Positions 3,001 to 38,333 of a DNA stretch of 64,000 nucleotides are shown in pieces. Made by a program: the position numbers and the translations under genes. The stretch's first letter is position 1; each line of letters opens with the position of its first letter. Under the pieces are notes generated by a model. That model was not told the DNA's origin. It ran no database searches and worked only from the letters and a program-made list of their open reading frames with translations. This DNA is from a virus (Duplodnaviria > Heunggongvirae > Uroviricota > Caudoviricetes), in the IMG/VR virus record IMGVR_UViG_2740892439_000009, one strand, 5' to 3'.

Positions 3001-5424
3001 AATCCGAACACTACAACGTCTATCGAGACCAGCCAGGGTGCGAAAGGTAACAACAGTGATGGCCGTGCGCAGTTCACGCTGACCACTTCATGGTCCCGCT
3101 ATTGGGTTAAGTGGAAACAGACACCTACCACGAGTACCAAGCGCCTGATTCTGTGTCGTATCGAGAGCAATACCTCCAAAGACCAGACGGTGTACATCAA
3201 CAGTCCGAAGTTTGAGGTAGGTAACGTTGTTTCCGACTGGAACGAGTCTCCGTCTGATAGTGCCAGTGCGTCGGCTGTGGACTCGCTGACAACGAAAGTG
3301 AATCAGCAGGGCACTTCCATTAGCTCTATCGGAAATCGCACCACATCGTTGGAAAACGGGTTATCGACAGCTCAAAACAATATTGCCAAGAAGGCTGATG
3401 CTTCTGCATTGCAGGATCTCCGGAACACGGTGACATCTCAGGGTGATGATTTAACTGCGGCGAACAGCAGCATTACCAGCCTGCATGCCTCGATGAACCG
3501 TCGCACTGTGTTTACTGTCACTGCACGGGGTAATGGCAACAGCGTTACCCATGGGGTGTTTGATGAAAGCGGCAAGAATCTGTTTACCCCTGGTCGCAGC
3601 TGGGCGCTGGTCACTTTTGCAAAACACAGCGACGGATCAACGGTGATTGCGACCTCCAAAACATACGATGTCTTTGGCAGCGCGAATAATGGCGCCACGA
3701 TGTCGGCTGATATCGAGGCACTGGCCAGTGGGACTTACGTTTGCGTCCTGACATTCGATGAGCCAACTGGCAACCGAGGTAAGGTGTTGTCTGCCCTGGA
3801 ATCTCTTGGTGGCACTTCCGAAGTCGTTAACTCTCTGCCGTATCGTGGCGCCTACATTCTCCTTGGCCGCAAAGGTATGAAGCCGGGCGATGGTCTGGAA
3901 CTGCGTGCGCCAACCGGTGGCGACGGCACCGCCCACATTTCGACCTCAGTCGAGTTTGTGAACGGGGTAATGATGGGGCTGGGCGCCGCTGGTGGTGTGA
4001 TGATGAAGGCTGATGCGAACGCATCTGCAATTACCACGCTCCAGAATACAGTGAAGACCCAAGGGGATAATATTGACTCCCTGAGCTCCTCGACAACAGC
4101 GCTGGAAAACAGCCTTGCGTCCAGTAACGTCAGCGTGGATGCAGCAAGCCAGATCCCCGGTAACCTGATCGTAAACCCGTCTTTTGAGCGTGGTACGGAG
4201 GGCTACACTGGTTGGAGCGGTATTGCCACGGTGGCAACGCTGCAGGTTCCACATCTTGGCACCAAAGCCGCCAAACTAGCGGCGGGTGGTTCTGCAGGCG
4301 TGGGCCAGAAGATCTCCTTCAAAAAGGATCGGTCGTACAAAATTGGTATTTGGGCAAAGCAGGACCCTAATACCACCATTCAGTCGACCGACAACACAAA
4401 ATTCCGTGTGGCTGACGGTACTGGCCTGATTGCAAGTAAGGTTTATGGTCCGTTCACCTCGAACTGGCAGGAGGTGTCATGGACATGGAAGGCGACAAAG
4501 GATGTCCTTGCTGACGTTCAGTTCACTGCTTTCTTGTCAGCCGGCGCGATGTACTTTGATGATTTTTACGTCGTCGATGTGACCGACTCAGTTGAAACTC
4601 AGGCGAACTCGAGTGCGATCACGAAGCTCGATAGTCGTGTGACCAAGACAGAGAATGACATCACCAGCCAGGGCAGCCAGGTTACGCAACTTAAGAATGA
4701 CCTTGCTACCACAAACACAAATGTTTCGAAGAAAGCGGATGCAGCTGCGTTAACGGCATTAACGAACCGCGTCACGCAGAATGAGAAAGAAATTGGAACC
4801 CAGAGCAGCCAGACAACTTCGCTCAAAAACTCTTTGAGCACTGTTCAGGCAATGGGAAGCAACCCGTGGTTTGATGGTTCTCTGGAGACGTACTCCGAAA
4901 ACCAGCAGATCAGCGGCTCGCGCGCGGTCGTCGTCAGCTCTCAGAAACGAAGCGGAACGAAGTCGTTGCGTGTTTCCCGCGGCGCCGGTGAGGGCGGAAA
5001 CAGCGATAAAACCATCGGTAAGTGGATTGCTCTGCGTGAAAATGCGGTATTCCGCATTGAACTCTGGGCGATGATGCCGGCAGATCAGTCGCCATCATCC
5101 GGGTGGTCAACGCTCGTTGGTTTGCAGACCCAAAACGCTGCCAACAACAATAACTGGCCGACGGCAATCACTATCAATGAAGCCGCATTGGGTGCAAGAG
5201 GCGCATGGAAGAAATTCACCGGTACGCTCCGTGTAGCCGCTGGCCACACTCGCGGCGCATTTTGGGTATCTACCGCGGCACAACTGGCACTGGTACACCG
5301 GGGTATGATCTGTATATCGATGACGTTGTTGTCACCGATATCACCGACGCAAAAGAGGCTCAAGATTCGGCTAATTCGAACGCATCCGCGCTCACCAGCC
5401 TTACCTCACGTGTTACCAATGTAG
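1..5424 (+). CDS. Lateral (L-shaped) tail fibre protein, LtfA-like; 5'-partial upstream segment, frame lost near 5270
   Basis: Frame open from base 1. About 8 diverged tandem modules, each with a coiled-coil stretch (QQGDxITSQGNSITKLTNDL..KKADQSAL) followed by a beta-rich domain ending in (F/Y)xDDxxVxDVTD. The last ~50 codons of this frame look like nonsense. Confidence 0.75.
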   Translation, partial: AGSYVIAHYKAFVKVNADTTITMAPGSRVFDDTGAVYVNGVRVAFGNASWNTVSFDLKAGWSTVEFLVNQWTGQAYINLGFKLSEKVAQLNSALGMNALSNAISAVTSNVSTVGDRVTSTSQSVTDLRNSLEQTNANLANKADAQALSTLQNTVSKQGDTISSQGNSITNLNNTLTAARNAGDNLIPNYDFLQGATAWDIQYPAGVAFGNFGDGKAGVKLNRTTTTSPGIFSNNNKPLPLNGQRKYRVVVKAKGVSGAMNMLIRRQNKIGQTDSNYEDKNVTLTSEWQTITWETGLTASNADGQNFKLYAHPANAEIWVDTFKVFDITDEVKIKANSDALSTLSSTVTQQGDKITSQGNSITKLTNDLEVADANIAKKADQSAVTTLTGRVEKTESGLTAANSNITSLSSSLNQQSKRGANLLPDGTFESYAVGHNLSNNRVIVTTDDSHGGSKCIRVTRPNDYNANATDNSDNHIFSGFQVRDNAVFYMECWVKLDAKSTAMAENAQISIGLSLQYQDNSWQWPAVTKAAKDLSTAQWTKVSGYLKSTKSGIKQAMVRISIPNVSSVKAGNSFLIDDLVITEVTDAYNAQSTADANANAISTLDSTVSQQGDQITSQGNSITKLTNDLATTNNNVSKKADQSALSVLSGRVDQTESGLSSANSSITALNSSVRAGNATSGDLISNPTFDPEFSQMGFTVVSSSSEGVPANCPYAYVARIAARDHHPNFAAIPATLGDVYEMSALVACGTGSADFNLYLGTATRPSGSVGAPLSSGGNRKASATWQRVTWRFKITQGIVDRGFFRPFLQINQSSPFGTVWYVTDWHLRNVTDSSKVQDSLDATAKAVDSLTSTVNQQGENISSIGTRTTNLENNLRTTNANVAQKADANALTALTNRVTQTEKDINSTSSSVTNLNNKVDAISVGGTNLIKNSGDMTGWSNVTSDTYRGNAVIGATVKAGSGYKDLREITLESPVDAGEYVYSFYAKGGVAGQIMTAFFYNPNTTTSIETSQGAKGNNSDGRAQFTLTTSWSRYWVKWKQTPTTSTKRLILCRIESNTSKDQTVYINSPKFEVGNVVSDWNESPSDSASASAVDSLTTKVNQQGTSISSIGNRTTSLENGLSTAQNNIAKKADASALQDLRNTVTSQGDDLTAANSSITSLHASMNRRTVFTVTARGNGNSVTHGVFDESGKNLFTPGRSWALVTFAKHSDGSTVIATSKTYDVFGSANNGATMSADIEALASGTYVCVLTFDEPTGNRGKVLSALESLGGTSEVVNSLPYRGAYILLGRKGMKPGDGLELRAPTGGDGTAHISTSVEFVNGVMMGLGAAGGVMMKADANASAITTLQNTVKTQGDNIDSLSSSTTALENSLASSNVSVDAASQIPGNLIVNPSFERGTEGYTGWSGIATVATLQVPHLGTKAAKLAAGGSAGVGQKISFKKDRSYKIGIWAKQDPNTTIQSTDNTKFRVADGTGLIASKVYGPFTSNWQEVSWTWKATKDVLADVQFTAFLSAGAMYFDDFYVVDVTDSVETQANSSAITKLDSRVTKTENDITSQGSQVTQLKNDLATTNTNVSKKADAAALTALTNRVTQNEKEIGTQSSQTTSLKNSLSTVQAMGSNPWFDGSLETYSENQQISGSRAVVVSSQKRSGTKSLRVSRGAGEGGNSDKTIGKWIALRENAVFRIELWAMMPADQSPSSGWSTLVGLQTQNAANNNNWPTAITINEAALGARGAWKKFTGTLRVAAGHTRGAFWVSTAAQLALVHRGMICISMTLLSPISPTQKRLKIRLIRTHPRSPALPHVLPM

Positions 5425-31285: not shown

Positions 31286-34200
31286 ATGAAGGCACTGATG
31301 GTTCGAACTGACTTCTCACTTGGGGAGTCGGCTTTAAAAGCAGAAAACGCGGTGAAGATTGCCAGAGAAGCTGGCTACACCGCTGTAATTTCAGCAGATA
31401 GCATGAATATTGCGAGCGTTATTCCACTACAACGTGCCGCTGGTGACGACATGGCGGTTATTTGTGGTGTGAAACTAAACATTGTTGATGATCCCACATA
31501 CGAGCACCGGGTTAAACTTGCTAAAGAATCTATGAGATGTATGGAATCATTAGAGCGGGGACGTAACTACTCGTTTACCGCTCTAATTAAAAATGAGCAA
31601 GGATATCGCGACATCTGCGAACTAATGACGGTGGCCAACACACGAGAACAGTTCTACTTTGTACCGCGTCTCTCGCTCGAACAGTTGGTTTCTACATATG
31701 CCAAAGGCAACATCATCCTGCTCACTTCCGACATCGGTAGCGTGTTCCAACGCAACGATTTTGCAAAAATCATAAGCTCACTGATTACAGCGGGCGGGAA
31801 AGACAACTTCTATAGCGTGGTTTATCCGCACCCTACCCCATTCTACGACCAGATTAACGTCCGGGCGATGAAAGTCGCCAGCGCATTGAAAATAGAGCCA
31901 GTGGCGTTCTATCCCGCTTATTACGAATCGATCGACGATGCAGACATTAAAGACATTGCGCACATGGTTACGAACAACATAAAAATCGACCAGCCGCATC
32001 GTCTGCGTATCCCCCACCAGCGAGATAACGCCATCAATGGTCGTCGCCATCTCCTTGAGGCGCTTAAAGCCTTCTCCGTTCGCATGGATGTGCCGGTAAC
32101 AGCTGCAATGGCCTCAACAACGCAGGACTCCATTATCGATGCCTGCACATGGCGCTGGCATGAATTGCCACCAGCACTGCCCAAGATGGCAGACGACGAA
32201 CCTGCAACGCTGATGAAACTGGCTGTTGCAGGGCTGCGTAAACGTCTTACCACAAAAGAGTTTGGATACACACCACCTGCTTCTGAGAACAGGGTTTATG
32301 TTGAGCGGCTAAAGTACGAAATGGACACGCTGACTCGCCTGGGATTCTGTGGTTACTTCCTGATGGTACGCGATCTGATGAATCACAGCCGTGAAACTGG
32401 CATTCCTGTCGGGCCTGGTCGTGGTTCCTCTGCCGGTTCTCTGGTGGCGTGGTGCATAGGCATAACCAACGTCGACCCAATCCGTCACGGTCTTCTGTTT
32501 GAGCGTTTCATCAACCCTGAGCGTCTCGACTTGCCGGATGCGGACTTGGACTTCAGCCAGGCACGTCGCCATGAGGTGATCGAGTATCTGAATGAACGCT
32601 ACGGCGAAGATTACGTTGCAGGCATTCCGAACTTCACCTATCTGGGCGCGGCATCTGCGCTGCGTGACACTGCACGTATTTACGGTGTCGATGCTGCGGA
32701 TATGGCGGTATCCAAAGAGTTCAAGAATATGGAGGACGACAGCCTGTCTCTGGAAGAGCTGCGCGAGCAACTGGCCAGCCTGGACAAATACGCCACGAAA
32801 AACCCGGAAGCGTTCAAAGCGGCGTGTAAGCTGCAAAGCCTGATGCGTGGTTTTGGTCGTCACGCTGCGGGGATGATCGTCGCTGGCGTTCCATTAGTAG
32901 AGCGCACGCCCGTCGAGCTGCGTGGCAATGCTCGATGTATTGCGTTCGATAAACGTTACTGCGAGGCGATGGGGCTGATTAAGTTGGACGTTCTCGGTCT
33001 GGCAACACTCGATCTTCTGGATAGCGCGAAACGCTACATCAAAGAGAGTACCGGTGAATACATCAATCTCGACGCTATCCCACTGGACGATCGCAAGGTT
33101 CTGGATGGGTTCGCTGCAGGGTACACGCAGGGCGTATTCCAGCTGGAGTCCGGCCCCATGCGTAAGCTGCTTAAAGATCTGGGCGGTGGCATCGAGCCAA
33201 TGAGTTTCAAAACCGTTGTCGCAACTACCGCCCTCTTCCGACCGGGACCGATTCAATCCGGCATGTTGGATGACTATGTTTCCGTTGCGAAAGGATTTAT
33301 GACGCCTACATCACTACATCCTGTCTTGGATGAACTGACCTCTGAAACAAATGGAGTGATTCTCTATCAGGAACAAACGATGAACGCAACAAGGCTTCTT
33401 GCTGGTTTCACAATGGCCGAGGCGGATGGTGTGCGTTCAGCAATCGGTAAGAAGAACATGGAAAAGATGAGGAGCATGGGTGAGAAATTTGTCATTCAGG
33501 CTCAAGCTGGGTGGATCGACGTAGAGCTTGAAAATGGCGCAATACAACGGATTCATCGCGCAGAACATTTTAAATGCGAGGACGGTACTCTGAGGACAGT
33601 TGAAGAGGCGTTGGAGCATGGAGTGAAGCTGCCAATGCCAGTTGTGCGCGTTACAACGTCACATCCAGGTCTGTCTGAGACGAAGGCAAAAGAGATATGG
33701 ACTGCATTTGAGAAAAACGGAGCCTATCAGTTCAATAAATCACACTCCGTTGCTTATTCTTTAATCAGTTATCAGTCTATGTGGCTAAAGACGCACTACC
33801 CTGCTGAGTTCTTCGCAGCTGCGCTCACCATTCTGGGCGAGGATAAGCATCAGGGGCTGGTGAAGGATGCGCTGACCTATGGCATTCGCGTATTGCCACC
33901 AGACGTTAATGTGTCATCTAACCGAATTGAGATCCGCACACTCGAAGACGGCAGTCAGGCACTGTATGCGCCATTCTCTGCTGTGAAAGGCTGTTCTGAA
34001 AATGGTTGTCAGGCAATTATGCGTGCGCGTGAGAAAGTTGGTGGCAAATTCGAGTCAGTGGCACAATTCGATGAAGCGGTCGAGAAGCGTGCATGTAACA
34101 GTCGTGTACGCGAGTCGCTTCATAAAGTAGGGGCTTTTGCGTCAATTGAGCCAGGCAGTCTGCCAGCAACTGATCCTGAACGACTGCGCGACCAGGCTGA

Positions 34201-34804
34201 GCTGATGGGCAATCTCATCATTGACGCTGTTAAAGCATCACGTCCGTTCGAAATGAATCCTAAGCGTTCTGCCGAAATCAACGTACTCATGACACGTATG
34301 GCGGCTGAAATGGGCTTGGGTGAGGAGTTGATACGCCCGACTATTGGTATTAAACCCAAAATCATGATCATTCTGGACAATGCGAACGGCAATGACGCTC
34401 GTACCGGCTACTTCATGGAGAACGGATACGACGACTTTAAGGCAAAACTACTGACAGTTGGAGATCTGCGCATGGGCGATCTTTATGTCACGGGTGTTTG
34501 TAAGAAGGTTAAGGACAAAGAGAAAGACTATACCAAAGACGAGATAGGCCAGTTCACAGACTTTATGCGGGAAGAAATTAATCTTGTACGACCAACCTAC
34601 ATTTTGACGTGTGGTAGTCGTTCAACCGCACTATTTAACAATAAGAGTAAACCATCAGATCTGATTGGTCGTAAGGAGTACTTCCCAGAGCTTGATGCAA
34701 CCGTCTTCTACGGATTTAACCCGAATATCCTGTACTTCCGACCGGAAGAAGGAGAGCGACTGGAGGCCATTCTGGCTGATATCGCGGAGACAATAAATAA
34801 GTAA
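31286..34804 (+). CDS. dnaE: DNA polymerase III alpha subunit (DnaE-type, family C) with extra internal and C-terminal segments
   Basis: PHP N-terminus; core motifs GFCGYFLMVRDL, GPGRGSSAGSLVAWCIGIT, ATTALFRPGP, AYQFNKSHSVAYSL; 1172 aa. Confidence 0.9.
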   Translation: MKALMVRTDFSLGESALKAENAVKIAREAGYTAVISADSMNIASVIPLQRAAGDDMAVICGVKLNIVDDPTYEHRVKLAKESMRCMESLERGRNYSFTALIKNEQGYRDICELMTVANTREQFYFVPRLSLEQLVSTYAKGNIILLTSDIGSVFQRNDFAKIISSLITAGGKDNFYSVVYPHPTPFYDQINVRAMKVASALKIEPVAFYPAYYESIDDADIKDIAHMVTNNIKIDQPHRLRIPHQRDNAINGRRHLLEALKAFSVRMDVPVTAAMASTTQDSIIDACTWRWHELPPALPKMADDEPATLMKLAVAGLRKRLTTKEFGYTPPASENRVYVERLKYEMDTLTRLGFCGYFLMVRDLMNHSRETGIPVGPGRGSSAGSLVAWCIGITNVDPIRHGLLFERFINPERLDLPDADLDFSQARRHEVIEYLNERYGEDYVAGIPNFTYLGAASALRDTARIYGVDAADMAVSKEFKNMEDDSLSLEELREQLASLDKYATKNPEAFKAACKLQSLMRGFGRHAAGMIVAGVPLVERTPVELRGNARCIAFDKRYCEAMGLIKLDVLGLATLDLLDSAKRYIKESTGEYINLDAIPLDDRKVLDGFAAGYTQGVFQLESGPMRKLLKDLGGGIEPMSFKTVVATTALFRPGPIQSGMLDDYVSVAKGFMTPTSLHPVLDELTSETNGVILYQEQTMNATRLLAGFTMAEADGVRSAIGKKNMEKMRSMGEKFVIQAQAGWIDVELENGAIQRIHRAEHFKCEDGTLRTVEEALEHGVKLPMPVVRVTTSHPGLSETKAKEIWTAFEKNGAYQFNKSHSVAYSLISYQSMWLKTHYPAEFFAAALTILGEDKHQGLVKDALTYGIRVLPPDVNVSSNRIEIRTLEDGSQALYAPFSAVKGCSENGCQAIMRAREKVGGKFESVAQFDEAVEKRACNSRVRESLHKVGAFASIEPGSLPATDPERLRDQAELMGNLIIDAVKASRPFEMNPKRSAEINVLMTRMAAEMGLGEELIRPTIGIKPKIMIILDNANGNDARTGYFMENGYDDFKAKLLTVGDLRMGDLYVTGVCKKVKDKEKDYTKDEIGQFTDFMREEINLVRPTYILTCGSRSTALFNNKSKPSDLIGRKEYFPELDATVFYGFNPNILYFRPEEGERLEAILADIAETINK

Positions 34805-34807
34805 TAA

Positions 34808-34836
34808 AGAAAACCCGCCTGTTGGCGGGTTTATAA
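34808..34836 (+). terminator. Rho-independent terminator
   Basis: AAACCCGCC..GGCGGGTTT hairpin. Confidence 0.6.
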
Positions 34837-35107
34837 AGAATTATGGCGCTTGTTGAGGAAGTCACTCCTCTTACGCACTTTGTTTTGCCATGCCGGCAGT
34901 TAGCTTCTGCCTTTGACTATTCATGCGGCAACCCCGCATTTCGCCACAATGGGCAATTCACTTTTATGGAATAAACTGGCCGTTGTGTCGATTTAATTAG
35001 CATGGCCTTACCATGCTAATTTATTCAACTTGTACAATCCTACAAATCTATCCACTCAGGCTTACACCGTCTTCGTTATTGTAGAAATGAGGATCATCAG
35101 CGTTGAA

Positions 35108-35323
35108 TCAGCTTAGAGCAACGACATTTGCTGCTGCTGGGCCTTTAGCCCCATTCTCGATAGAGAATTCGACCTGCTGGCCTTCTTCCAAAGTGCGGAA
35201 ATTATTACTCTGAATTGCCGAAAAATGTACAAAAACATCTTTACTGCCATCAGCAGGAGAAATAAAGCCAAAGCCTTTATCAGAGTTAAACCATTTTACT
35301 AAACCAGTCATTTTATTAGACAT
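35108..35323 (-). CDS. cspA: Cold-shock protein, CspA family
   Basis: [38 protein letters not shown] is near-identical in pattern to E. coli CspA; SD AAGAAGG; long upstream leader; terminator-like hairpin near 34995-35020. Confidence 0.85.
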
Positions 35324-35652
35324 AGATATTACCTTCTTAATTTTGTGAGCCACATAGTGCGGCGAGAATTTGATCTGTATAGATTGGGACTTACTTAGGC
35401 ACTTAAGGAGGAGACTCACGAAGAAGGGAAATCAGAAGATAACACTGAACTGAGACTGCTTTACTAAAACTGCTTACATAAGGTCTGTCTTGCAAACCAA
35501 CGATGCTATTAACGCATACCCCTTCTTTTCATGCAACCTTTATTTTTCAAAGATAACTAATTTTTGTCACCATTGGTTTAGTAAACGTTAACGAACCAGA
35601 CGATGCCAGACACCTTTACAGAGAACAGATGCCCGCCAATTGGCGGGCATCA

Positions 35653-36216
35653 TTATGCGCATTTCGCAATATCTTTGCGGCGTTTAATCAGTTTCTCCGC
35701 AATTTGCTCTATTTCGTTGAAATCTTTCGAGACGCTGTTTCGAAGCGCCAGATTCCATTTACTCAAAGTTCGGGCATTTTGGACAATTTGATCGCCCTCT
35801 TTAAGTCGTCCGTTATTCATGAGCCATTCAGCCACATCAGCCCAATCCCAGAGAGGAGACTGGCCTTTTATGCGTTGTACAGGGCAAGGGAAGTCGCCGC
35901 TTCCGCGCTTACCGTCTTTGAGCAACGCCACTGCCTGGCGAGACAGGTCTGTCAGTTCCGCGATATCGCTTAAGCCCACAAGAGCCGAGTCGACGGATTC
36001 AACAATTGCACCGATACCGGCTGATTCAATATTGTCGACCGCAGATGCGATAGCTGCATCAAGTGATTGTGCTTCGCGGTCAAATTCTACATAGACGGAG
36101 TTTCCATATGCGCAAATTAGCGCATCGTCACAGCCGTTTTGGTACAGCGCGTCTTCCAGTCCTTCCGTCTCATACGATACGCCTGAGAGCGTCAGAGTGA
36201 AGTTATAAAGCGCCAT
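35653..36216 (-). CDS. Hypothetical DNA-binding protein (C-terminal HTH-like region)
   Basis: ATG at 36216 with AAAGGAA SD; C-terminal segment LSRQAVALL..LWDWADVAEW resembles small phage HTH regulators. Confidence 0.4.
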   Translation of the reverse strand: MALYNFTLTLSGVSYETEGLEDALYQNGCDDALICAYGNSVYVEFDREAQSLDAAIASAVDNIESAGIGAIVESVDSALVGLSDIAELTDLSRQAVALLKDGKRGSGDFPCPVQRIKGQSPLWDWADVAEWLMNNGRLKEGDQIVQNARTLSKWNLALRNSVSKDFNEIEQIAEKLIKRRKDIAKCA

Positions 36217-36276
36217 AGTTTTCCTTTGAAGATAGTTGGACAGTTTCTGCAAAAGGCGGCTAATGCCGCCTTGAAA

Positions 36277-36501
36277 TCATTTACAACGATCAACCATTCG
36301 TTTGATCTGTTTGGCATGGTTTTCGGGATTACCCGGAGTCGACCATACGCTCATTTGGTGAGTTTTGTGTTCACCTTCTGGATTACCGCATCGCAGTCTG
36401 CAAAAACAATGTGCAGCACCACCAGCTGCTACCCAGATCCAGCCTTTACTTAATGCATAGTCAATGGCTGCTTGAATATGCTTATTCGGATGTTGCTTCA
36501 T
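36277..36501 (-). CDS. Hypothetical Cys/His-rich small protein
   Basis: 74-aa ORF with GGAGG SD. Confidence 0.45.
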   Translation of the reverse strand: MKQHPNKHIQAAIDYALSKGWIWVAAGGAAHCFCRLRCGNPEGEHKTHQMSVWSTPGNPENHAKQIKRMVDRCK

Positions 36502-36755
36502 TCGCCTCCGATAATAGTATTCTATTCACAGTGTTGACATCTGTCAACGGCGACTGAATTTCATCCGTTCATGCCACACCCCCATCCATCTCATGTATGT
36601 GACCTAAAGATGGTCAGCACAGCTTACCAAAATAAGACAACTAATTATCTTCGGTGATCTCAACATTTTCCCCTGAACAAAGTTGACATGACGCCATAAA
36701 CCCGTTCTCTGTTTGATATAATTGATACAGATTTTATAAGTAGGAACTTATTAGA

Positions 36756-37304: not shown

Positions 37305-38333
37305 ATGTCTAAGACATTACTTGATTTGCTTAACAAAACTCGTGAAGACATTGCCGCCAAACGTGGCAACAACGTTGATCTGACTCGCTTAAAAGACGGC
37401 GTCAACTATATCCGCATCTTCCCGAATAAAGACGACCCAAACGGTAAGTTCTTCCAGACTTTCGGTATGCACTACGTTAAGTATCAGAACGAGGAAGGTA
37501 AAGAAGCAACCAACGCTTATATTTGTGAGCAACATACTCACGGTCGCGCTTGTCAGCTATGCGAAATGGTGATGGAAGGTCGCGCTCGTCACAAGGGTAA
37601 CAAAGCAATGGAAGAACGCATCGGTCAAATGCGTGCCACTCCTCGCTACCTGGTCAACGGCATTCTTTCTGCTCGTGAGGATTTCGCAGATGCTGAGAAA
37701 TGCCAGTTAATCGAGCTGCCGTCTACTGTATTCGATGATATCTGCAAAGCAATCACCGAAGACATCGCTGATGATATCGGCAATCCACTGAGCAAAGAGG
37801 AAGGCTACGCATTCCTGATTAAACGTACTGGCTCTGGTCGCGATACCAAATATGACGTCTCGCCTAAGCGTAAAGTCTACAAAGGCGATATCGAAGATAA
37901 ATTCTGGAACACCCAGCATGATCTGATCGCATACGCAAATCAGGCTGATGAAACTCGTCTTCTGTCGACAGTTCGCACTATGGGTCGTCTGATTGGCATC
38001 GCTGCACCAACTGCCGCAGCATCTGCACCAGCAATTTCCTCAACCGCGAAAACATCGGCTGCGGCACTACCTGGATTTGGCTCTGTCACTGGTCATACAG
38101 AAGGAGCGACGGCTGTAGCAACCGCGCACACACCGGCTTCTGAACCAACCAGTCTGGTTGATGAAGAAATCCTCCGTGCCGTTGAAACTGAATTTAAACC
38201 AGAGGCAAGTTCCGCTGCCGTTGCCGTATCAGTCAAAGAGTCTGAAGCAGTCGCAGCGACATCTGTAGCAACCGCATCTGCGACGGAAGATGAAGGTCTG
38301 GATGACCTACTGAGAGAACTGGACTCTCTGTAA
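37305..38333 (+). CDS. gp32-like single-stranded DNA-binding protein
   Basis: N-terminal IRIFPNKDDPNGKFF, Cys/His cluster CEQHTHGRACQLCE, acidic C-terminal tail DDLLRELDSL; layout as in T4 gp32. Confidence 0.7.
   Translation: MSKTLLDLLNKTREDIAAKRGNNVDLTRLKDGVNYIRIFPNKDDPNGKFFQTFGMHYVKYQNEEGKEATNAYICEQHTHGRACQLCEMVMEGRARHKGNKAMEERIGQMRATPRYLVNGILSAREDFADAEKCQLIELPSTVFDDICKAITEDIADDIGNPLSKEEGYAFLIKRTGSGRDTKYDVSPKRKVYKGDIEDKFWNTQHDLIAYANQADETRLLSTVRTMGRLIGIAAPTAAASAPAISSTAKTSAAALPGFGSVTGHTEGATAVATAHTPASEPTSLVDEEILRAVETEFKPEASSAAVAVSVKESEAVAATSVATASATEDEGLDDLLRELDSL

Follow-up and report, generated by a model that had tools for sequence, protein, structure and literature searches.

We analysed a 64,000-nt stretch of viral DNA (IMG/VR record IMGVR_UViG_2740892439_000009; hereafter, the window) that is ~99.9% identical to the SSU5-type phage-plasmid Escherichia phage Cyrano/pLF82, and find on its minus strand a cold-shock gene, csp, within a cassette of ~745 bp (about 34805-35548). 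The cassette is probably a self-contained accessory unit (a 'moron') in a cargo site of SSU5-type elements, encoding a cold-inducible RNA chaperone of the CspB/G/I subgroup. In the csp region, identity is 99.9-100% both to Cyrano/pLF82 and to dozens of E. coli, E. albertii, and E. fergusonii plasmids with sizes of ~100-114 kb. Cyrano forms virions and is present at ~5.5 copies per cell (PMC9928086). An earlier, sequence-only reading of the window had proposed that csp is phage-plasmid-borne, and the identity to Cyrano/pLF82 bears this out. From homology, we infer cold induction, a structural switch, and a benefit of the window csp gene; the protein, the leader, the promoter, and the distribution of the cassette are described below.

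The csp coding sequence (ATG 35323-35321, TGA 35110-35108) specifies a 71-aa protein that consists of a single cold-shock domain (Pfam CSD, PF00313, residues 5-69 of 71; 115 bits vs. a threshold of 27; E 1.4e-33) with intact nucleic-acid-binding motifs RNP1 (KGFGFI, residues 16-21) and RNP2 (VFVHF, residues 30-34). The nearest solved structures are those of E. coli CspA (2L15 and 1MJC; E about 1e-32), and the product matches PHROG 729. The protein scores 140.2 bits with the NCBIfam CspA subfamily model (cut-off 130) and 146.6 bits with the CspG equivalog model (NF007378), marginally above the cut-off of 144. Identity to the E. coli K-12 paralogues is 82% for CspB and for CspG, 80% for CspI, 72% for CspA, and ~50% for CspF and CspH. 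The near-colinearity with CspA noted in the sequence-only reading therefore holds, with CspB, CspG, and CspI as the closer relatives. By these sequence comparisons, the csp product is a member of the CspA family and, more exactly, of its cold-inducible CspB/G/I subgroup. RefSeq plasmid records name the gene cspG. We considered orthology with chromosomal cspG and rejected it: the window gene lies in a dnaE/hicBA-like context rather than in the cspH-cspG-ymcF-ymcE-gnsA context, and its leader shares only ~55-60% identity with that of cspG. Membership of the CspB/G/I subgroup, rather than the name cspG, describes the gene best. The protein is predicted, from its family, to bind single-stranded RNA or DNA and to melt secondary structure.

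The csp coding sequence is preceded by a long 5' untranslated leader of the cspA thermoregulator type. The Rfam cspA thermoregulator family (RF01766) matches positions 35083-35501 on the minus strand at 185.7 bits, vs. a gathering threshold of 78 (E 2e-50; model positions 1-428), and the leader alone matches at 28.4 bits (E 7e-6). The model's terminator part (positions 398-421) has no counterpart in the window csp mRNA. The cold box, the pairing of an internal anti-Shine-Dalgarno (anti-SD) sequence with the Shine-Dalgarno (SD) sequence, and the helix between leader and downstream box are homologous to those of host leaders, and the cold-box hairpin is preserved. The sequence-only reading was thus right that the leader is long and resembles that of host cspA, and the comparison of cold boxes that it called for comes out in its favour. 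Its figure of about 150 nt before the SD was too low (the SD lies ~165 nt, and the AUG ~178 nt, from the leader start), and its end coordinate, 35480, must be moved: the leader begins near 35501, so that the first 21 nt, including the cold box, had been cut off, and the promoter extends to ~35548.

RNAalifold, applied to alignments of 10 and of 109 sequences, recovers the cold-box hairpin, a ~21-bp helix between leader and coding sequence, and the anti-SD:SD pairing in essentially all rows. The helix between leader and coding sequence and the cold-box hairpin are kept in all 109 unique related sequences, a set that was gathered by the leader 20-mer GCAGTTTTAGTAAAGCAGTC and whose invariance is therefore partly a matter of ascertainment. 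An enlarged loop in the 'upstream box' hairpin is common to plasmid and phage-plasmid copies, that is, to those of the window, Klebsiella, Buttiauxella, an E. albertii IncF plasmid, and Providencia.

The leaders of cspG, cspB, and cspI are RNA thermometers, for which a 2025 study reports two architectures: a large stem-loop that sequesters the ribosome-binding site and, at 10 °C, a register-shifted, shorter stem-loop within the leader alone (PMC13271884). Minimum-free-energy (MFE) folding predicts both architectures, not only for the window csp gene and K-12 cspG and cspB but also for the copies in Klebsiella and Buttiauxella. The two folds predicted for window csp match the architectures described in that study. 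Rho-dependent attenuation has been reported for cspB and cspG (PMC7815308) and may apply to window csp too.

Upstream of the leader, alignment with K-12 cspA, cspB, cspG, and cspI identifies a cspA-type promoter, comprising an UP-element-like tract, a -35 hexamer TTGCAT, and a TGn-extended -10 element. Position 1 of the RF01766 model maps to 35501, which would place the transcription start at ~35501. A generic sigma-70 promoter scan missed this promoter, reporting only a weak upstream site at 35570-35542; the promoter assignment is, for this reason, by homology only. The csp transcription unit probably runs to the intrinsic terminator at 34832-34806, and a terminator scan detects no further terminator-like site between the csp stop codon (35108) and that terminator. 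The features of the cassette and its upstream edge are collected in the table.

Table. Features of the csp cassette and its upstream edge, ordered from the upstream edge to the terminator (window coordinates; CDS, coding sequence).
Feature	Position	Strand	Basis or remark
Terminator-like hairpin 3' of the upstream hicB-like gene	35628..35651	-	Terminator scan; separates hicB-like gene from csp promoter
AT-rich, UP-element-like tract GAAAAATAAAGG, directly 5' of -35	35537..35548	-	AAAATAA core invariant vs. K-12 cspA, cspB, cspG, cspI and Klebsiella copy
-35 hexamer TTGCAT	35531..35536	-	Aligns with cspA -35 TTGCAT; TTGC invariant in 7/7 sequences
Extended -10 TGcGTTAAT, 17-nt spacer to -35	35508..35516	-	Aligns with cspA TGgCTTAAT; TTAAT invariant
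5' untranslated leader, cspA thermoregulator type, ~178 nt to AUG (~165 nt to SD)	35324..35501	-	RF01766
Cold-box hairpin GGUUUG-CAAGA-CAGACC	35482..35498	-	First helix of RF01766; kept in 109/109 unique related leaders
Cold box TGCAAGACAGA, inside cold-box hairpin	35494-35484	-	8/11 positions identical to cspA cold box TGACGTACAGA
Long-range helix, 5' strand GCAGUUUUAGUAAAGCAGUC (leader nt 29-48), pairs with CDS codons 5-11	35454..35473	-	RNAalifold; RF01766 [[ ]] pairs
Internal anti-SD CUCCUCCUU, predicted to pair with SD in large 37 °C stem-loop	35405..35413	-	RF01766 alignment; MFE of leader + 45 nt
'Upstream box' hairpin GCC-N9-GGC	35349..35363	-	GCC/GGC pairs invariant; chromosomal cspA/B/G have GCC-GAAA-GGC
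SD region AAGAAGG, 8 nt 5' of AUG	35332..35338	-	Sequence, alignment
csp coding sequence, CspB/G/I subgroup	35108..35323	-	Pfam CSD, NCBIfam CspG, PHROG 729
Downstream-box region GACUGGUUUAGUAAAAUGG, 3' strand of long-range helix	35291..35309	-	RNAalifold, MFE
Perfect 12-bp AT-rich hairpin AAUUAGCAUGGU-AAG-GCCAUGCUAAUU, no U-tract	34995..35021	-	Only in E. coli phage-plasmid version
Conserved multi-helix RNA domain, 116 nt, cloverleaf-like	34838..34953	-	9-bp closing stem, three well-supported hairpins and one weak
Intrinsic terminator AAACCCGCC-AACA-GGCGGGUUUUCUUU	34806..34832	-	Terminator scan; bidirectional, common to csp and convergent dnaE; homologous to terminator after Qin cspB

The cassette exhibits the hallmarks of a moron: it has its own promoter and terminator, conserved phage genes lie on its flanks, and it is present in some close relatives and absent from others. 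It is located inside a replication/recombination gene block, between dnaE, which is convergent with csp, and a hicBA-like gene pair, and it is bounded on both sides by terminator-like hairpins in the terminator scan (35651-35628 and 34832-34811). In SSU5, which lacks csp, homology to the window resumes at the first of these hairpins, which marks the upstream edge of the cassette. The plus strand carries dnaE (31286-34804), a gene for a gp32-like single-stranded-DNA-binding protein (37305-38333), and exonuclease and recA-like genes, and the minus strand carries csp and the hicBA-like pair; csp accordingly lies opposite to the replication genes, as the sequence-only reading had said. The GC content is 41% in the cassette vs. 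46% in the window.

The site occupied by the cassette is a variable cargo site of SSU5-like elements, extending from about 34805 to 36700, that is, from dnaE to a 143-aa open reading frame (ORF; 36756) and the gp32-like gene. It is empty in PhiR41_1, contains a 141-aa ORF and the hicBA-like pair in SSU5, contains other genes in ST13-OXA48phi12.3, contains the 141-aa ORF and csp in Klebsiella phage pJN2-26, and contains csp in Buttiauxella p1WJP83. The cassette is thus found at the same site in Klebsiella and Buttiauxella relatives. An SSU5-like dnaE plasmid is present in 244 of 5,426 complete E. coli genomes (about 4.5%), and 90 of these 244 genomes have the cassette at an identity of at least 99%. 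In a phage collection, csp is present in 2 of 12 SSU5-like records, and CSD genes are rare in phage records generally (85 of 50,697). A literature search found no paper linking a cold-shock gene with SSU5-like phage-plasmids. The pJN2-26 record (MZ779062.1; locus L003, 3072-3287) gives csp as 'putative portal protein' and annotates a 41-aa ORF within the leader.

Comparison of the window and Klebsiella copies shows 5 changes at 163 nonsynonymous sites and 34 changes at 44 synonymous sites (i.e., saturation), with 93% identity between the proteins. Despite the saturation of synonymous sites, the promoter and leader together (query 35324-35545) retain 82% identity to the Klebsiella copies. We conclude that the protein and the non-coding leader are both under purifying selection in this lineage.

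Three sets of csp loci serve for comparison. The first comprises K-12 cspB, cspG, and cspI, together with cspA. Window csp resembles these in encoding a single-domain protein of 70-71 aa with RNP1 and RNP2 (80-82% identity to the cspB, cspG, and cspI products), in having a cspA-type promoter, in having a leader in the range 145-178 nt with cold box, anti-SD:SD pairing, upstream-box hairpin, and leader-paired downstream box, and, as regards cspG, cspB, and cspI, in having the same two predicted folds as those reported (PMC13271884). It differs from them in being phage-plasmid-borne, outside the cspH-cspG-ymcE-gnsA and Qin contexts; in having a leader that is ~20 nt longer, with an enlarged upstream-box loop; and in having no terminator directly after the coding sequence. 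The window leader is ~55-60% identical to those of K-12 cspB and cspG and resembles csp leaders of other Enterobacterales and of plasmids.

The second set comprises cspB of Qin-type prophages (K-12 Qin, Tritos, 2H10, HannyBb). Here, as in the window, the gene is part of a phage-carried cassette with its own promoter and leader, and the same structured 3' domain and terminator follow (71% identity over 717 bp). The leaders are of different sequence types. The settings differ: Qin-type cspB lies between Q and the lysis genes of integrated lambdoid phages, often beside cspF, whereas window csp lies in the dnaE/hicBA-like context of an extrachromosomal SSU5-type element. The Tritos copies have been scored as expressed morons in lysogens (PMC9928086). 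The third set comprises plasmid and phage-plasmid copies. The copies in the SSU5-like elements pJN2-26 and p1WJP83 occupy the same site beside dnaE (leader identity 82-95%) and, like the E. albertii IncF and Providencia copies, share the enlarged upstream-box hairpin. Unlike the pJN2-26 and Buttiauxella cassettes, the window cassette has a 3' RNA domain and an AT-rich hairpin; unlike the window copy, the IncF and Providencia copies reside in unrelated plasmid backbones. The latter two are cspA-type genes with the full plasmid-type leader, on an E. albertii conjugative IncF plasmid (L008) and on a Providencia rettgeri non-mobilizable plasmid (L009); they adjoin fimbrial or toxin-antitoxin genes, and neither plasmid is phage-related.

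According to the hypothesis that the cassette supplies a cold-inducible chaperone, transcription would begin near 35501 at the cspA-type promoter. At 37 °C, one large stem-loop would arise from the 178-nt leader together with the initial ~40 nt of the coding sequence; in it, the SD would be paired with the internal anti-SD and the downstream-box region with leader nt 29-48, and the csp mRNA in this fold would be unstable and poorly translated. Upon temperature downshift, the register-shifted, leader-only stem-loop would form, the SD and AUG would be freed, and the protein would accumulate. Through RNP1 and RNP2, Csp would bind single-stranded RNA or DNA and melt cold-stabilised structures, and it might be able to act as a transcription antiterminator, as CspA-family proteins do. 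Carriage on a ~5-copy plasmid would raise cold-shock protein dosage for the lysogen and, hence, for the element's own gene expression, outside the warm gut. The suggestion in the sequence-only reading that such a chaperone could modulate host or phage mRNAs is likewise a hypothesis. In the same strain as Cyrano (LF82), the prophage csp genes (Tritos CspB, CspI) are transcribed 59-93 fold over prophage background in lysogens (PMC9928086).

Several observations weigh against this hypothesis. E. coli already has four cold-inducible paralogues, which could make a further copy superfluous, and the cassette is missing from more than half of its SSU5-like plasmids. The csp coding sequence is absent from the annotation of the Cyrano record (OV696614.1) and, as a result, was left unscored in the LF82 transcriptome study (PMC9928086). 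Covariation within the leader is weak, the leaders being mostly invariant in sequence: the leader helices represent conservation, not covariation, because their positions hardly vary and because the set was gathered by a 20-mer, and the leader alignments add little independent support beyond the Rfam score. Equilibrium folding from 10 to 42 °C (ViennaRNA) yields a flat profile of SD and AUG accessibility; however, the validated cspB, cspG, and cspI controls are equally flat, and the temperature scan is therefore powerless, since known positives show no switch either. A literature search found no paper linking a cold-shock gene with SSU5-like phage-plasmids.

A different account of the same protein is that the chaperone serves the life cycle of the element rather than the fitness of the host, by supporting replication, partition, or late transcripts in the cold, by antitermination, or by coupling the lysis-lysogeny decision to temperature. 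The location of the cassette within the replication/recombination gene block is consistent with this account, as are the position of the homologous cspB cassettes of lambdoid phages between the Q antiterminator gene and the lysis genes, and the antitermination activity of CspA-family proteins, which is established knowledge and is reflected in NCBIfam family names. Nevertheless, SSU5, PhiR41_1, and most related phage records lack the cassette and yet replicate and form virions; csp has a promoter of its own, of host type, and is not wired to a phage operon; and no target site was identified. We consider a role in the life cycle of the element unlikely.

The cassette is mosaic. In comparisons of 34810-35548 with the K-12 Qin locus (L005), the pJN2-26 locus (L003), and locus L007, the promoter and leader are ~95% like Buttiauxella/plasmid-type copies, the 3' region matches only the Qin-type cspB locus, and parts of the csp coding sequence are nearer to cspB at synonymous sites. 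The leader type, as defined by the 20-mer, is widespread in Enterobacterales, where it accompanies the chromosomal csp genes of many members, and 33 IMG/VR contigs also have it; the nearest chromosomal relatives have ~87% identity in the protein and ~80% identity in the leader. The mosaicism is suggestive of recombination, in E. coli, between the csp loci of phage-plasmids and those of lambdoid prophages.

Such mosaicism raises the question of whether the cassette is a neutral passenger, recently captured by recombination from resident prophage or chromosomal csp loci. The combination of a plasmid-type leader with a 3' region (34810-34952) 82% identical to the Qin cspB 3' region speaks for a passenger, and the patchy distribution and the lower GC content (41% vs. 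46%) fit as well. The purifying selection on protein and leader, however, argues against a neutral passenger: with synonymous sites saturated, 93% identity in the protein and 82% identity in the leader require long-term purifying selection. Moreover, elements of Escherichia, Klebsiella, and Buttiauxella carry the cassette at one and the same site, none of its regulatory elements is damaged, and inactivating mutations were not seen in the copies examined, which are intact and have 99-100% identity (plasmid copies number ~90 in E. coli and 76 in Klebsiella). Neutral carriage therefore appears quite improbable, and an accessory cold-shock function, under selection, is the reading we prefer.

A structured RNA domain (see table) lies 3' of the csp stop codon, ahead of the terminator at 34832-34806. 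Folding of the 303-nt csp 3' stretch is much better than that of shuffled controls (z = -5.25). Positions 34810-34952 have a counterpart, at 82% identity, 3' of cspB in about 1,640 E. coli chromosomes; in K-12, it is situated in an unannotated stretch between cspB and ynfU, with the domain itself at 5060-5175 of the Qin locus (L005). When a structure predicted from K-12 only is compared with the window copy, the 20 substitutions include four compensatory double changes, two wobble-compatible changes, and one disruption; with randomised substitutions, four compensatory pairs are obtained at P about 4e-4. Upon addition of a third variant, from phage PHB10, compensatory changes are present in 7 of 28 pairs in all, with 98.8% paired (0-1 in slid controls). 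To a total of 36 distinct sequences, obtained with a covariance model (R1) and with pattern scans of viral and metagenome contigs, the same structure applies, with 97.4% of cells paired and eight pairs changed on both sides; slid controls are 21-59% paired. Two motifs of the domain served as search patterns, and their invariance is by construction; the covarying helices lie outside those motifs. RNAalifold independently recovers helices 1, 2, 3, and 5, and the G-U pairs in the domain favour the csp-sense strand.

The domain is associated with csp genes. A CSD ORF is located on the same strand, no more than 700 nt upstream, in 265 of 282 domain instances, and an RF01766 match is located directly upstream in 13 of the 14 loci tested, with the 14th (L318) at a contig edge. 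No Rfam family matches the domain (34838-34953), and a literature search found no paper describing an RNA in the cspB 3' region. The domain is not in the pJN2-26 or Buttiauxella cassettes, not in K-12 cspA, cspG, or cspI, and not in 100 chromosomal csp loci of other Enterobacterales; it is in some Klebsiella-type viral or phage-plasmid contigs (L143 and others) and in phage PHB10. A distribution confined to mobile elements was considered and rejected, inasmuch as AT-rich, PHB10-type variants occur on metagenome contigs of up to 750 kb beside chromosomal small-RNA (sRNA) genes; these long contigs are probably chromosomal. The PHB10-type variant group has no megablast match in E. coli. The PHB10 csp region itself (MK524177.1 42870-45950; L258) gives no megablast hit among 5,426 complete E. 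coli genomes, and its neighbours are umuC, a gene for an SOS-response peptidase, and an STnc100 sRNA match; another enterobacterial host, richer in AT, may have contributed DNA to the PHB10 record.

Other readings of the 3' block were tried and set aside. A coding block was rejected: the plus-strand 43-aa ORF (34843-34974) is out of frame in Qin-type copies, and K-12 ynfU lies outside the shared block. A separate or late (pR') promoter found no support: no promoter-like site is present, and the sequence 5' of the closing stem is unconserved. A tRNA or tmRNA, which the cloverleaf-like shape might suggest, was rejected: ARAGORN and Rfam found nothing. The AT-rich hairpin at 34995-35021, which lies between the stop codon and the domain, has no counterpart in Qin-type or Klebsiella copies. 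Our tentative proposal is that the 3' domain is an undescribed structured RNA that travels with cspB-type genes of prophages, phage-plasmids, and some genomic islands, and that it could be either a 3'-end element that sets mRNA lifetime (e.g., by blocking 3' exonucleases) or a regulatory RNA derived from the 3' untranslated region, such that the mobile cassette might escape or rewire host shut-off after acclimation.

The domain also bears on the possibility that the RNA, not the protein, is what the cassette contributes, with multicopy cold-box leaders or a released 3' domain titrating or regulating host factors and thereby altering the host cold-shock response. When the cspA cold box is over-expressed, host csp genes become derepressed; the cold box is conserved, as is its hairpin; the plasmid is present at ~5.5 copies per cell; and the 3' region holds a covarying, conserved RNA domain followed by a terminator. 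Against this, the protein itself is under strong purifying selection, the pJN2-26 and Buttiauxella cassettes keep the gene without the 3' domain, the promoter scan shows no separate promoter, and there is no sign of processing or of a target. A cassette selected for its RNA is, in our estimate, slightly less probable still than one carried neutrally.

The genes directly upstream of csp, 35653-36252 and 36277-36501, both on the minus strand, are named HicB and HicA in the Cyrano record and are reported as expressed in lysogens. They match PADLOC candidate defence system components PDC-M06B and PDC-M06A (110.8 and 68.5 bits), and the larger gene also matches PHROG 2620 ('excisionase and transcriptional regulator'); neither gene has a Pfam or NCBIfam match. 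A reading of the CSD protein as part of an anti-phage defence, either as a retron-type effector or as the third gene of PDC-M06, could appeal to this adjacency and to weak hits, of 55.5 bits with PADLOC CSD_V and of 53.6 bits with the NCBIfam model of the retron Se72 effector (NF038236), but we rejected it and give it almost no weight, because the effector score is below the cut-off of 82 and reflects generic CSD similarity, no reverse transcriptase is present among the neighbours, the csp gene and the PDC-M06-like pair are independently distributed (SSU5 has the pair without csp, and pJN2-26 has csp without the pair), and csp has its own cold-shock promoter and leader. Elsewhere in the window, a tRNA cluster is present at 22080-22636 on the plus strand (Asn-GTT, Tyr-GTA, Thr-TGT, Ser-TGA; three confirmed by Rfam at the gathering threshold).

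Taken as a moron that encodes a cold-inducible chaperone, the csp cassette is a modest addition to known biology: RefSeq already has a name for the gene, and prophage csp genes such as Qin cspB and cspI have long been known. It means that the cargo of SSU5-type phage-plasmids goes beyond toxin-antitoxin and resistance genes, and that a large sub-lineage carries a complete, host-style, putatively temperature-gated RNA-chaperone gene. This suggests that selection acts on SSU5-type elements in the cold, out-of-host phase of enteric bacteria. The 3' RNA domain is the more useful by-product, having neither an Rfam entry nor an annotation in about 1,640 E. coli chromosomes, including that of K-12. 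If functional, the domain would add a layer to one of the best-studied post-transcriptional stress circuits; and, if our reading of it is true, the cold-shock cassette of mobile elements would escape or rewire the shut-off that the host imposes after acclimation.

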